A stretch of 64,000 bases of DNA from an uncultured Acidobacteriota bacterium (GTDB lineage Bacteria > Acidobacteriota > UBA6911). Position numbers and translations under genes: made by a program. Shown in pieces: positions 35,469-42,523 of this stretch (positions are counted from its first letter, which is position 1; each line of letters opens with the position of its first letter). The notes beneath the pieces are model-generated. The model did not search any database. It was not told where the DNA came from and saw nothing but the letters and a program-made list of their open reading frames with translations. The stretch lies in assembly GCA_964651155.1 (NCBI GenBank), contig CAZYXB010000004.1:46386-110385 (forward strand), read 5' to 3'.

Positions 35469-35543
35469 GCGGGAGTAATTCAGCGGTAGAATGCCAGCTT
35501 CCCAAGCTGGACGTCGCGGGTTCGATCCCCGTCTCCCGCTCCA
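35469..35543 (+). tRNA. tRNA-Gly (anticodon CCC)
   Basis: Acceptor GCGGGAG/CTCCCGC. Anticodon stem CCAGC/GCTGG with loop TTCCCAA. T-arm GCGGGTTCGATCCCCGT. 3' CCA encoded. Confidence 0.85.
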
Positions 35544-35787
35544 GTCAAACCCATTGAATCACTACCACTAACAGGAAAGCCCAGAACACCCCCGGCGGTC
35601 CCCGTTTTGGCGTTTTCGGCCCTGTTGCAGCTGTGTTGCAGATTTTCCCCTGCAATAGCTGGTAGGGAGTTTATCCAGTCGTGCCCTTTTTGCGGCTGTT
35701 GATGTCCGTACTGTGTAACTGTGAGCTCAATACTGCTGTGCCCGAGCCATTCTGCAATGAAAGCAATCGGCGTTCCGTTGTTCAGGT

Positions 35788-35813
35788 GGGTTCGATCCCC
35801 GTCTCCCGCTCCA
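35788..35813 (+). repeat. Direct repeat: exact 26-nt copy of the tRNA-Gly 3' end (att-like)
   Basis: gggttcgatccccgtctcccgctcca is identical to tRNA positions 50-75, about 245 bp downstream of the tRNA. Confidence 0.7.
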
Positions 35814-36091
35814 TGAAATTAATCCCCTATAGACACGTTCCACGGGAGGATCCTATGCGCCATCAGCCCGCCCGCTGCAATTAAGAATATCCTCGATGGC
35901 CCCAGATTGCCTTCCAGGCCCCCTCCAATTTTCCCTACAGTACTGGATCGTAGTGTCAACGCAAAAGGGAACCCCCCCAAATTAGAATAAGGGTCTCCAA
36001 TCAATCTAGGTATAAAAGTCTGGGTCTTCATCGGAATTTGTGGGTGAAATGAACCATAAAAAGGCTGGCCTGATGGAAATGCCGCCTCTGC

Positions 36092-36118
36092 GGAAATCCC
36101 TAAAAAGCGCGGATTTCC
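36092..36118 (+). repeat. Inverted repeat GGAAATCC-N11-GGATTTCC
   Basis: Seen directly in an intergenic, island-like region. Half-sites are related to the GGAAT/ATTCC 14-mer. Confidence 0.4.
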
Positions 36119-36268
36119 ACAAGCTGCCCGGGGAAGTCCGGCCGAAAAGCGCCCATATTTCTCCAAATGACCAAAGGCCCTATCATGATTCCATCTCTTG
36201 AATTCTGAACCGCGGGACTATTGGCCCTTCAAGCAATGCCAAGGCTCGCTGCGTTAGTTGTTTGCGGA

Positions 36269-36282
36269 GGAATTAGGATTCC
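36269..36282 (+). repeat. Second copy of the 14-mer GGAATTAGGATTCC
   Basis: Identical to 32650-32663. Expected by chance fewer than 0.001 times in 64 kb. Confidence 0.4.
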
Positions 36283-38870: not shown

Positions 38871-39983
38871 ATGCTTTTCAGCGGAAAGAAAGTCATTGTT
38901 GCCGCAGTCGCGGTTACACTCGTGCTGGCGGTCTCAGCCTTTGCGCAGAAACGCCTCATGGATCCGAGGCTGCGCGGCGAAGGTCCGCTCAAGGTGATGA
39001 CGTACAATATGTATGCCGGTACCGAGTATGCCGGAGTCACCGCCAGCGATCCGGCCGTTTTCCTGCAGGCAGTTACGGACATGTTCGCGGAGGCCGAAGC
39101 CAACGACCCGGCGGGCCGCGCGCTCGCGATCGCACGCCAGATTTCGATCACGCGGCCGCACCTTGTGAGCCTGCAGGAAGTGGCCACATGGAGCAGGGGG
39201 CCGACGAGGGACGACCTCACATTGGAGTACGATTATTTGGAACTGCTGCTCGACGCGCTGGATGCGCTGGGCGAGGATTACATGCCGGTGGCTTCGCTCA
39301 CTACCTGGGATACCATTGTACCCAGTTCGACGGGCCTGTATGTCCGCAACACTTGGCGCGAGGCCATCCTGGCACGCGCCGACCTGGATCCCAGGCATTT
39401 TTCATTCACGAATATCCAGGCAGCCCCGTGGTCGGCCGGCGCCACCATCAGCTTTCCGCTACCGGCCCTGAACGGATCTTCGGACTGTCCGGTGCCGCTA
39501 GAGGCTTCCGGCGCCTGCATGATGCCTTTCCCGCGCGGCTGGGTTTCAGTGGATGTGACGTACCGGAATAAGCAGTTCCGCTTCATCGACGCGCACCTGG
39601 AGAGCAAGAGCGCCTCGAAGAACTTCCTCGAGAGCCTCGAATTGCTGAACGGTCCGGCCCTTACCGCGCTGCCCGTCATCGTCGCGGGGGATCTGAACTG
39701 CGATCTCGGCAATCCCGAAAGCTCGAAATACCAAACATGCATGAATTTCCTGAACACCGGGTTCCGTGATGCATGGAACGAAGCCAACCCGGCAGAGCCG
39801 GGCTATACCAAGCACCTTCCGATAATGACGGAGCGGAGTGATTACGTCATGATCCGGGATCCGATCTTCTCCCAGGCTGCATTCCTGGTCGGGGAGGAGC
39901 CGGAAGATAGGACGCCGTCGGGCCTATGGCCCGGCGACCACTGTGGTGTCGTTGCGCGGTTGCAGTTTTCATTTGAGGATTAG
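38871..39983 (+). CDS. Secreted endonuclease/exonuclease/phosphatase (EEP) family protein
   Basis: Signal peptide KKVIVAAVAVTLVLAVSAFA. EEP motifs VMTYNMY...LQEV...GDLNCDL. Confidence 0.7.
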   Translation: MLFSGKKVIVAAVAVTLVLAVSAFAQKRLMDPRLRGEGPLKVMTYNMYAGTEYAGVTASDPAVFLQAVTDMFAEAEANDPAGRALAIARQISITRPHLVSLQEVATWSRGPTRDDLTLEYDYLELLLDALDALGEDYMPVASLTTWDTIVPSSTGLYVRNTWREAILARADLDPRHFSFTNIQAAPWSAGATISFPLPALNGSSDCPVPLEASGACMMPFPRGWVSVDVTYRNKQFRFIDAHLESKSASKNFLESLELLNGPALTALPVIVAGDLNCDLGNPESSKYQTCMNFLNTGFRDAWNEANPAEPGYTKHLPIMTERSDYVMIRDPIFSQAAFLVGEEPEDRTPSGLWPGDHCGVVARLQFSFED

Positions 39984-40731
39984 GCCAGGAGCTTTCAGGT
40001 ATCAGCTGAAAATTGTGGACACCCATGGTTCGGGGATCCGGCCGGCATCGGTGCCGTGCCTTCGCGGTGCTTTGGATCCGACGCGAATTGCTCGAATTGA
40101 TTAAACTGTGCGCGGCGAATGGCCCAACTTTTTCGGCAACCCGCAGATGGTCAAAGCCCTCTTGGGCCGTCTCAGGCACTTCTGCCATACCGTTACGATA
40201 GAAGGCCGCGATTTCAGAGAACGGCAGGGATAAACGATTCAATATGGGAGTGTCTCAACCGAACTTGAAAGAAATATATTAGAATGGATGTCCACTGGGG
40301 AACCAACTCGGTAACGGTCATGGATTCCGCCGGGAAGGTGGTGATGGATTCTGTATACGAAGCAAAAGCAGCGACCATTCGTGGTGCTGAACGCCGATCC
40401 CAGAGAGTTGGTTTGAGGAACCGATTGCGGTAATTCTGCACGCTCGGATCTGCGAGGAGGGCGGTCATTGCAGGGTATTGTGTTCCTATTCGGGCACGCA
40501 GCTGGAAACGGCCGATACAAACAAGGCGACACCGTAAGACCTCTTGTGGCCTCCCCTGCGCAGCGGGACACTATGGTCGAGAAGTTTGTTCCGGAATGTA
40601 CGGAAACGGGAAGCCCGAGGTGCCCAATCTGCCGCCTAAGTCGGAATTTTTGACTGGAGACAGGAAGGGGTATTTAGGCGCACCGTTGGCCATTCATTCA
40701 ATAAAGATAATGCTAGATATAGTGCGCATAT

Positions 40732-41327
40732 ATGGCACTTTTAGTAGCATTATGCCTGAAGAGACCGAAAAATCCAGAGAAGGCTTTGAAGCTTCGGGGG
40801 GCGCGGCTTGATCTCGCTCAGGCACCGGCCATTGGACTTGTCGTCTGTGGTGGATCGGCGCTTGTCGCTCCAGGATTGACACAGCGGACGACCAGAGATG
40901 TCGATGTCCTTGCGCTGATGAATCCGGGCGGTGACTTGATCTGTCCTGACCCTTTGCCCGGCACCTGCTTGATACGGCGAAAGAAGTAGCACGCGACCTT
41001 TATCTCCATGAGAATTAGTTAAACAACGGTCCAAGCCGCGATACCGGCGGAATATTCCAGTCGGGCTTACCGGAAATCATTGCGAGGCGGCTGCAGTCGC
41101 GCTCCTATGGGGATCGACTTGCCGTCCATTTCATCGGGCGATTGGATCAGATTCACCTGGAGCTGTACGCAGCTGTGGACAGAGGTGAGGGAACTCACCT
41201 CGATGATCTTCTAGCCCTGAAGCCTGACGATGTTGAATTGGAGGCAGCCGCTCGTTGGGCGATGACGCATGATGTTTCGCCCGGTTTCCGGATGATTCTC
41301 AAAGATAGGTTGAGGCAATTTGGATAG
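40732..41327 (+). pseudogene. Fragmented AbiEii/AbiGii-like nucleotidyltransferase (two ORFs in different frames)
   Basis: LVVCGGSALVAPGLTQRTTRDVDVL matches the GG(S/T)AL...R.T.D.D signature of AbiEii-type toxins. The frame changes between 40989 and 41142. Confidence 0.3.
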
Positions 41328-42339
41328 GACTCCGTCGCTGACAAAATTTAGAGATGAATTCCAGGAATTGCTGCTGGATTTCCTTTGGCGGCAATGGTCC
41401 GCATTGGGAATTGCGGGTCATGCGCAGCCCCTGGATCAATGGATCATCGATCCGGAAGCTTTGTTCTTGGTTACCTGCACTGTGGGGCGCCACGATCCTC
41501 GCCTGTTTGATGAGGTGCTGGATTGGGTCAAAACAAACGGAACCTTCATGAACATTCTTCGGCTCAAGCGCCTCTTGCGCACCGAAAAGTTTGCCGGAGA
41601 GCGCGTTCTTTCAGCCGTGGCAGGGTTAATGAGCAGCAAATCCGATGTGCTGAAGTGGAAGAGCCTGGCTGAATCGGTTCAACCCTGACAGAAATCCGAG
41701 ACTCTATTTTTTGCGAAAAATGGGCATCCTCTCCCATCATTCGTCAAAGAAGATCCGCATTTCGCCCGGTATGGCTACAAGCGTGGCCCGATACGAAGCC
41801 GTAATCAGTCGCAAGCCTTTCGGGCAACCGAACAAACTAATCTGATGCTGCAACTGCGCGCGCTGTTCGGCATCAACGTTCGATGCGAGATCATCCTCTA
41901 TCTGCTACCCCATGAGGCTGCGCATCCCCCTCGTATCGCCCGAGACGCCTATTACTGCGGGTGCACCGTACAAAACACACTTGTGGACACGTCTCATTCC
42001 GGAGTCATTCATTTGCGAACGGCAGGGCGTAGGAAGCTTTATTGGCTCAAGCCAGATACCTGGGCAGCCTTGCTGAATCGCAAGGAACCGTTTCCAAAAT
42101 GGGTTACCTGGCCTCCGCTATTCAGCGCTTTAGAGCGCATCTGGCTGAAGCTTAACGATACCCTATTGCTACAAGCAGATCCGCTGCTGCAGTCCTCCGA
42201 GGTGCGGCGTATCATGATGCAAGCTCGCCCCCATGTCGAAAGGGCAGGATTTGATAAAGCACTATCAGAGGACCGCCAATATATCGGGGAATCGTACCTC
42301 CCGGTGTTTTTGTCAGATCTCCGACGACTCTTCCGATAG
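41320..42339 (+). pseudogene. Two same-frame ORFs (122 and 164 aa) separated by in-frame stops. Probable disrupted hypothetical gene
   Basis: 41320..41688 and 41845..42339 share a frame. Lower GC. No recognised family. Confidence 0.25.
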
Positions 42340-42473
42340 GGCGTACTCCAAATGGAATTTTCAAAGCTGTACTCCATTAAGAATATGCTTTTCCCGGACC
42401 TGCATAGACTGGGCGTTTTCTAGTCATCAAACATCAACGCCGTGGGACCTATGTTCTTTATTTTCAATGTTGA

Positions 42474-42523
42474 GCCAATTTCCCAAACTGGACGTCGCAG
42501 GTTTGATCCCCGTCTCCGCTCCC
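42474..42523 (+). repeat. Degenerate direct copy of the tRNA-Gly 3' half (anticodon stem-loop to 3' end). attR-like
   Basis: gccaatttcccaaactggacgtcgcaggtttgatccccgtctccgctccc vs tRNA gccagcttcccaagctggacgtcgcgggttcgatccccgtctcccgctcca (about 43/50). Confidence 0.6.

Follow-up and report, generated by a model that had tools for sequence, protein, structure and literature searches.

A tRNA-Gly(CCC) gene downstream of kdsD in an uncultured acidobacterium as a probable two-sided attachment site for successive tyrosine-recombinase elements

What kind of history leaves a single tRNA gene with partial copies of itself on both of its sides? The question is posed by a stretch of 64,000 nucleotides (hereafter the window) from an uncultured UBA6911-like acidobacterium (contig CAZYXB010000004.1, positions 46,386 to 110,385 of the forward strand), in which a tRNA-Gly(CCC) gene lies downstream of kdsD, the gene for arabinose-5-phosphate isomerase. 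An earlier note, made from the letters of the window, had read this locus as an old and eroded site of successive site-specific integrations into the 3' half of the tRNA gene. Here we argue that the kdsD-linked tRNA-Gly(CCC) has very probably been used as an attachment site from both of its ends and that the DNA around it holds the wreckage of at least three integrations mediated by tyrosine recombinases. Integration into tRNA genes reportedly takes place at three sublocations, namely the anticodon-loop, the T-loop and the 3'-end, a division said to go back to work by Williams in 2002, which is cited in PMC6563490 and PMC1635311.

The tRNA-Gly(CCC) at 35469-35543 (+) is the sole tRNA found by ARAGORN in the window and scores 65.5 bits against the Rfam covariance model RF00005, which returned no other tRNA-like match at E<=1 within 30-50 kb. 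Its nucleotides 50-75 are duplicated exactly at 35788-35813 (26 nt, GGGTTCGATCCCCGTCTCCCGCTCCA); none of 100 dinucleotide-preserving shuffles gave two matches, and the copy has a blastn-short E-value of 5e-7. Nucleotides 25-75 are copied once more at 42474-42523, where the 50 nt show six substitutions and one deletion relative to the gene and an ungapped core identical at 39 of 44 positions (E=8e-11). Because the 24 nt on the left of this copy lack similarity to tRNA nucleotides 1-24 (5/24 identities by eye), it is a sharp-edged partial copy and a whole decayed tRNA is excluded. On the other side of the gene, 34952-34971 resembles tRNA nucleotides 1-20 with 18/20 identities, both changes being G>A, a match that is weak in isolation (E=0.027). 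Five of the six substitutions in the 50-nt copy are GC>AT transitions, as are seven of the eight across the two decayed copies, which is the pattern expected of unconstrained DNA. The gene and its two 3' copies are thus where the earlier note had placed them; the fragment resembling the 5' end, which it had set at 34949-34976, is a real remnant at the orthologous tRNA position, of slightly narrower extent. Both 3' copies are fixed in every covering contig of the same population, these contigs having been assembled independently from several samples. A further att copy bounding the block at 42.5-46 kb was sought across the window, and nothing better than chance was found; a 15-nt stretch at 63106-63120 that resembles the tRNA 3' end in inverted orientation (E=0.08) was rejected as fortuitous, as it lies within a coding region and has no extended similarity. 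The 37-nt 3' att sequence had no match in viral contigs. Short-read contigs of the population break inside the tRNA (L081 ends at 35496, L082 and L088 begin at 35489 and L089 begins at 35515; loci fetched for comparison are numbered with an L), likely as a result of identical tRNA genes in other genomes of the samples; the 26-nt repeat is free of assembly breaks.

The earlier note had further held that no integrase gene remains at the locus. The interval from the tRNA to the 26-nt copy, translated on its minus strand, corrects this: 35594-35787 (-) codes for the final ~60 codons of a tyrosine recombinase with the motif WLGHSSIELTVTQYGH, and the strand reads …LNNGTPIAFIAEWLGHSSIELTVTQYGHQQPQKGHDWINSLP…, which is the C-terminal His/Tyr box of such enzymes (LGHSS…YGH, containing the His and the Tyr). 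This stub matches the Pfam Phage_integrase profile at E=8e-4 over profile positions 141-171 of 172. In tblastn searches with the homologues P0001, P0009, P0015 and P0024, which had been obtained with a related stub of L026, it was matched at E=1e-10 to 1.5e-15, and all alignments begin at 35785, 3 nt from the repeat. Apart from the stub, no integrase remnant was found in the window by tblastn with three integrase families as queries. L174 has a near-complete homologue of ~395 codons, which comprises a SAM_5-type N-domain and a catalytic domain and contains one in-frame stop. This gene points toward a tRNA-Gly(CCC) sharing 100% identity with that of the window, and the L174 DNA aligns with window positions 35468-35788 at 75.7% identity over 325 nt. 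Homologous stubs likewise follow tRNA-Gly in L021, L026 and L172, and in L175 a stub of the same family lies beside a 45-nt tRNA fragment (nucleotides 31-75) with no intact tRNA. Since the L175 fragment measures 45 nt and the outer copy in the window 50 nt, these data fit a family of integrases that would use the 3' part of tRNA-Gly with an identity block of ~45-50 nt, as seen in that outer copy.

Some features of this integrase family deserve separate mention. Its 55 database homologues (P0001-P0055; loci L172, L173 and L175) range from 78 to 233 aa, so that a full-length member is missing among them. Where the contig is long the gene is truncated, in two cases downstream of IS21 genes, which in L173 are directly adjacent, and several of the open reading frames (ORFs) continue into the complementary strand of the tRNA beside them. 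Many of these homologues are probably orthologous relics in related hosts. A different and intact tyrosine integrase of 365-367 aa is found ~50 nt after tRNA-Gly(CCC) in L013 (within 17094-20666) and L016 (13916-15013); in L013 it is followed by ORFs resembling, by eye only, a ParA-type ATPase and a relaxase N-terminus, which suggests a mobilisable element at the same 3' site.

The 5' fragment calls for a different class of element. It begins 67 nt past the kdsD stop, the intact tRNA of L002 lies 74 nt past the stop, and the spacer on its left aligns with the spacers of L002 and of L003. We interpret the fragment as the ancestral 5' end of the tRNA, still at its native place and displaced from the rest of the gene by an element that integrated in reverse orientation. 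In L003 the tRNA is interrupted at the same base as in the window, after GCGGGAGTAATTCAGCGGTA, and an integrase gene comes next. L015 has the same break, and its 365-aa integrase combines Arm-DNA-bind_5, Phage_int_SAM_5 and Phage_integrase domains. The arrangement of a 20-nt fragment followed by an intact IntDOT-like integrase recurs in L003, L015/L176, L092, L098-L100 and L177-L184, and near-identical variants of the fragment precede the integrase in L093 (22/23) and L097 (27/30). In six metagenomic contigs with integrases 51-72% identical, such a fragment of 20-30 nt precedes int by 200-330 nt and an intact tRNA is missing. The IntDOT-like family counts 1,733 homologues at E<=1e-40; in viral contigs the L015 integrase found distant matches only. 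No 5' fragment follows kdsD in 16 other relatives.

Complete elements of this class could be delimited in three loci. In L176, which is the L015 chromosome, the fragment occupies 9738-9757 and an intact tRNA-Gly 20151-20225; in L184 the respective positions are 566-585 and 11151-11225; and L179 (9742-20380) has the same spacing, its tRNA being cut at nucleotide 54 by the contig end. The distance from fragment to tRNA is hence 10.4-10.6 kb. According to precomputed Pfam hits, all three share a gene order of IntDOT-like int, HTH_17, primase, Terminase_4 (small terminase), S78 protease and HK97-type capsid, and on these grounds they look like phage satellites of Acidobacteriota. L177, which may represent a larger prophage, has instead an HNH gene and a large terminase (TerL). 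In the window, 497 bp separate the 5' relic from the intact tRNA. The 214 bp adjoining the tRNA are homologous to L010 6029-6241, and two traits recur at the verified right ends of the L176 and L184 elements, namely a promoter-like CTTGAAAAAA-N17-TAAAGT ~140 nt upstream of the tRNA, and TTGTTG repeats at -58 to -70. The layout of the right arm and the TTGTTG motifs are common to the complete elements and to window positions 35290-35468. At L100 622-646, in the left arm, 23/25 positions agree with the motif TTGTTGTACC-TTGTTGCGCC, and the density of TTGTTGC across all fetched loci is only 0.13 per kb. The window thus shows a 5' fragment stranded at the native position and a tRNA probably rebuilt at the far end; as tblastn finds no integrase beside the stranded fragment, it holds a relic of a reverse-orientation element rather than a member of the class. 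The earlier note's placement of the integrations in the 3' half of the tRNA therefore holds for the 3' copies, and has to be supplemented by a second, reverse-orientation class within nucleotides 1-20. Decayed fragments of IntDOT-like integrases were also observed downstream of kdsD in L006 (12419-12574) and L022 (11915-12199) and, in L111, at 4417-4648, 1.5 kb upstream of an intact tRNA-Gly (6115-6189); in view of these fragments, erosion of 5'-class elements is recurrent.

The genomic context of the tRNA gene in relatives bears on the same question. KdsD homologues were retrieved from 80 relatives, the closest at 79-81% identity in metagenome-assembled genomes of Acidobacteriota of the UBA6911 lineage; with the closest relative only about 80% identical in KdsD, the comparison is made with sites none of which is a strictly 'empty' sister site. 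The window is syntenic with L002 from 26 to 34.9 kb, and tRNA-Gly(CCC) lies ~70-140 nt downstream of kdsD in L002, L018, L020, L021, L023 and L026. Beyond the tRNA this order is lost: the window ORFs of 35.5-64 kb have a homologue in 0 of 12 relatives, for which 4-10 kb after the tRNA were compared, and among these relatives downstream genes are common only to the pairs L013/L016 and L021/L023, apart from a weak single-ORF match between L020 and L023. Because nothing downstream of the tRNA is shared, the gene is a clade-wide synteny breakpoint. No 3' partial copy of the tRNA occurs in the relatives scanned for tRNA fragments, which speaks against the repeats being conserved ancestral DNA, and exact-protein look-ups of window genes led to nothing beyond contigs of the same population, in which the arrangement is identical. 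In the closest relative, L001 (81% KdsD identity), 5.7 kb (3971-9667) separate kdsD from tRNA-Gly; its ORFs resemble by eye PEP-utilising enzyme fragments and pyridoxamine-phosphate-oxidase-like, TspO-like and epimerase-like proteins, and this interval contains no integrase-like ORF by eye and no detectable 5' fragment.

The DNA on either side of the tRNA is in part compositionally foreign. Two stretches, 34.9-36.7 kb and 40.0-46.0 kb, stand out in tetranucleotide usage (z up to 4.4) and in GC content, which is 0.51-0.55 there against about 0.60-0.67. Host-like composition resumes at ~46.0 kb, so that foreign-looking DNA extends 3.5 kb past the last repeat, whose end at 42523 is where the earlier note had closed the island. 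The k-mer comparison which that note had suggested for 34.9-47 kb bears out an atypical signature for most of the interval, with the exception of the block containing the CadC-like and EEP genes, which is host-like. Its GGAAT/ATTCC-type repeats do not amount to a feature of the island: 13 occur in 34885-36731 against about 7 expected at genome background (~1.8-fold), with no enrichment elsewhere. Its general picture of old and eroded successive integrations is borne out by the integrase stub, by the L174 homologue beside an identical tRNA, by the absence of the repeats from relatives and by the atypical composition.

Based on these observations we propose the following history, whose order of events we infer from the nesting and decay of the pieces. 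On the 3' side, elements carrying tRNA nucleotides ~25-75 would have recombined with the gene in canonical orientation, each integration placing its int just after the tRNA and reading toward it, with a partial copy (attR, the junction distal to the tRNA) at the far end. Newer elements would have displaced older ones outward; as newer arrivals push the older outward, the outer copy at 42474 is old and mutated and the inner copy at 35788 is exact. In the most recent of these elements a single deletion would have run from inside int, ~60 codons before its stop, into the 45-50-nt attR. The remainder of int, the whole cargo and the initial ~25 nt of the repeat would thereby have been lost, and a 244-bp stub would have become fused to the 26 nt with which the repeat ends; microhomology at this junction amounts to one G at most. 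On the 5' side, an element resembling a phage satellite would have recombined within tRNA nucleotides 1-20 in reverse orientation, stranding the original promoter and nucleotides 1-20 beside kdsD and providing a new promoter and new nucleotides 1-20, before being deleted to about 0.5 kb. The promoter of the working tRNA, its nucleotides 1-20 and probably its nucleotides ~25-75 would then be derived from mobile elements, with original pieces surviving as the outermost relics. We further lean, without strong conviction, towards the view that the 5' relic is the footprint of a large and still active family of ~10.5-kb capsid-encoding satellite-like elements in Acidobacteriota, whose IntDOT-like integrases would systematically use tRNA-Gly(CCC) nucleotides 1-20 in reverse and bring their own tRNA promoter; the tRNA would on that account be two-sided and wholly derived from mobile elements in both nucleotides 1-20 and nucleotides ~25-75.

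Other accounts of the repeats have to be weighed against this history. That the partial copies are merely decayed extra tRNA-Gly genes left by tandem duplication would suit the fact that all of them share the orientation of the tRNA; yet similarity ends sharply at nucleotide 25 in the outer copy, nucleotide 50 in the inner copy and nucleotide 20 in the 5' fragment, with unrelated flanks, the inner copy abuts integrase coding sequence, relatives have one tRNA here, and neither the covariance model nor ARAGORN finds a second one, so that we give this origin next to no credence, including in its variant of degenerate tRNA pseudogenes. Hardly more credible is an intact junction of SSV1 type, in which attP would lie inside int and the stub with its 26-nt copy would bear no deletion scar. 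The integrase frame does continue directly into the tRNA-like 26 nt, and int ORFs of the subfamily also read into the complement of the adjacent tRNA, but the 26 nt do not encode the missing residues, for which homologues have RHTFASLLLTAG, the L174 gene is continuous there with no tRNA-like insert, and no N-terminal half of an integrase is present in the window; a split integrase of this kind was rejected on these counts. More serious, if still unlikely, is the reading of the 26-nt copy as the complete attR of a different, T-loop-type element, spanning the T arm to CCA, with a later deletion that happened to end at the att boundary. The copy is exact and begins at the first T-stem base (nucleotide 50), and a second, unrelated integrase family is indeed present on the 3' side of the tRNA in L013 and L016. 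This reading requires an improbable deletion endpoint within 0-3 nt of the att edge, the family of the stub is tied to 45-50-nt blocks in L175 and in the outer copy, and no trace of the L013-type integrase is seen in the window. A single deletion with arbitrary ends is simpler, because a complete attR would need an endpoint coinciding with its edge, homology ending 0-3 nt away, and the 26-nt copy is most simply explained in this way.

Several observations nevertheless tell against parts of our reconstruction. An identity block of 26 nt would equally be expected of a T-loop-type att site, as opposed to a truncated 50-nt attR. The promoter segment at 35272-35352, which we would assign to the 5'-side element, is closest to L176 9624-9704, outside the element and on the left of its 5' fragment; it is possible that each 5'-side integration shifts an earlier promoter and fragment leftwards, and that the L176 left flank is itself an older right-arm relic. 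The block of CadC-like and EEP genes at 36.7-39.98 kb is host-like in tetranucleotide composition, which sits poorly with a single island between the two 3' copies, and contigs from two samples (DRR835035 and SRR8925767; 99.6-99.8% identical) diverge from the window at 39962/39963, one of them also at 44943/44944. The first of these junctions falls among the 7 final codons of the EEP gene, the second inside a 148-aa ORF (L085 10505-10532; L087 1-29 and 5011-5040), and the alternative sequences are absent from the window and from all fetched loci. Because the CadC-EEP block is host-like and sequence has been replaced in two strains, the interior of the island is a strain-variable mosaic rather than the cargo of one element. 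The block at 42.5-46 kb is not bounded by an outer att copy, its status as an island resting on composition and orphan genes, and we suggest with low certainty that it is a third and oldest island. Finally, no relative shares the downstream genes by which the right-hand boundary could be fixed, and a chromosomal rearrangement at the tRNA may account for 46-64 kb. Extended to the DNA after the tRNA in general, especially 46-64 kb and perhaps the CadC-EEP block, this becomes the proposal that ordinary chromosome was brought in by rearrangement at the tRNA, which is compatible with the two-sided history and which we regard as possible, if somewhat doubtful. Both 36.7-39.98 kb and the sequence from about 46.0 kb onward resemble the host in composition, housekeeping genes, among them miaA, come next, and no downstream gene is held in common with any of the 12 relatives; the one possible mark of an inversion, the 15-nt match at 63106-63120, is a chance match, and no other mark of a second breakpoint was found.

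How does the locus compare with known systems? The two-sided history invokes nothing that does not fit known tyrosine-recombinase biology, and the locus is a new example of a known phenomenon, its one mildly unusual aspect being the apparent use of one tRNA from both ends. The 3' side is reminiscent of canonical tRNA island arrays, in which an intact tRNA stands at one end and direct partial 3' copies at the far ends, the tyrosine-integrase gene adjoins the tRNA and reads toward it with older elements outward, and the DNA shows foreign composition (in the window at 34.9-36.7 kb and 40.0-46.0 kb but not in the CadC-EEP block), orphan genes and erosion by deletion. The window has the direct repeats of the 3' end in the same orientation, an integrase next to the tRNA as a relic only, and an insert that is absent from the related sites compared. 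There is no mechanistic difference; the window differs in that its integrases are reduced to one ~60-codon stub, that its innermost repeat is probably truncated and that its host is an uncultured UBA6911-like acidobacterium. It shares with SSV1-type integrases an integrase frame contiguous with a tRNA-derived segment, and differs from them in that this segment replaces no integrase codons and that the window has no N-terminal half.

As regards the 5' side, integration in reverse orientation is known and, in the account given in PMC6563490, considerably less frequent than integration at the 3' end; Zhao & Williams 2002 (J Bacteriol 184:859) and archaeal cases are listed there, and it is presented as scattered exceptions so far. 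The likeness to such cases comprises the stranded 5' fragment with its promoter, the gene rebuilt at the far end with the 5' part and promoter of the element and, in the elements of relatives, the integrase gene beside the stranded fragment. Particular to the present case are the Bacteroidota-type architecture of the integrases in relatives (Arm-DNA-bind_5, Phage_int_SAM_5 and Phage_integrase), the identity block in nucleotides 1-20 of tRNA-Gly(CCC), and the retention in the window of a 0.5-kb relic only.

Satellites of the type of phage-inducible chromosomal islands (PICIs) combine int, a regulator or Xis, a replication module and a packaging or capsid-hijack module in about 10-15 kb and are mobilised with the dependence on a helper. 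The ~10.5-kb elements of L176, L179 and L184 resemble PICIs and capsid-forming PICIs in their succession, by precomputed Pfam hits, of int, HTH_17 (AlpA/Xis-like), primase, small terminase, prohead protease and major capsid; L179 and L184 showed no recognisable portal, large terminase or tail gene, and none of the satellite cargo survives in the window.

Hotspots at tRNA genes, tandem arrays and the decay of islands are textbook matter, and the locus changes no concept. It affects annotation, as about 11 kb after kdsD are to be regarded as accessory DNA and the regulator and enzyme genes after kdsD as island cargo or mosaic insertions. It also offers a worked example of two-ended tRNA use in a poorly known soil phylum, and suggests that integrases of reverse orientation, borne by satellite-like elements, form a sizeable family that could be mined for att-site rules; the capsid-encoding family in relatives would merit more attention if its reverse orientation is proven systematic. 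The features of the locus are collected in Table 1.

Table 1. Features of the window around tRNA-Gly(CCC), with coordinates, strand and suggested role or supporting evidence
Feature	Coordinates	Strand	Role and evidence
kdsD, arabinose-5-phosphate isomerase	33907-34884	+	SIS and CBS domains (Pfam); conserved left flank, after which synteny stops
Native kdsD-tRNA spacer	34885-34951	+	Promoter-like TTGTAA-16-AATAAT at 34935-34962; today joined only to the displaced 5' fragment
Putative relic of ancestral tRNA-Gly nt 1-20	34952-34971	+	Proposed left junction (attL) of lost reverse-orientation element
Residue between 5' relic and right-arm relic	34972-35254	.	No integrase similarity (tblastn); no significant match to complete elements
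Putative right-arm relic of reverse-orientation element	35255-35468	+	Promoter-like TTGAAA-17-TAAAGT at 35299-35327; repeat TTGTTGTACC-TTGTTGCGCC at 35396-35420
Intact tRNA-Gly(CCC)	35469-35543	+	Proposed recombination target (attB); probably a composite gene today; ARAGORN, Rfam
3' end of tyrosine-integrase pseudogene and its 3' spacer	35544-35787 (coding 35594-35787)	-	Breaks off exactly where the 26-nt copy begins
26-nt copy of tRNA nt 50-75	35788-35813	+	Proposed attR of most recent 3'-side element (A), probably shortened
Proposed remains of older 3'-side island (B)	35814-42473	.	No integrase; Acido-Lenti-1 RNA, CadC-like gene, EEP gene, orphan or broken ORFs
Acido-Lenti-1 RNA (RF01687)	36586-36633	-	Rfam, 42.7 bits (gathering score 37)
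CadC-like wHTH-TPR regulator	36732-38507	-	Pfam
EEP-family enzyme	38871-39983	+	Pfam
Orphan or broken ORFs	40.0-42.4 kb		
Decayed 50-nt copy of tRNA nt 25-75	42474-42523	+	Proposed outermost, oldest attR
Foreign-composition block with no recognisable outer att copy	42524-46000	.	Tetranucleotide z 2.5-3.8, GC 0.52-0.55
Orphan genes	42674-43264, 43285-44310	-	
XRE-type HTH regulator	44342-44848	-	Pfam and PHROG HTH matches
Orphan	44778-45224	+	
Membrane protein	45263-45940	+	

Among the contents of the island, the orphan ORFs gave no matches in NCBIfam and PHROGs apart from the XRE-type regulator. The Acido-Lenti-1 RNA follows the CadC-like gene in the same orientation after ~100 nt, and the region of its 3' hairpin is repeated directly over 25 nt at 36478-36502, 97 nt away, which may constitute a second, partial copy of this RNA.

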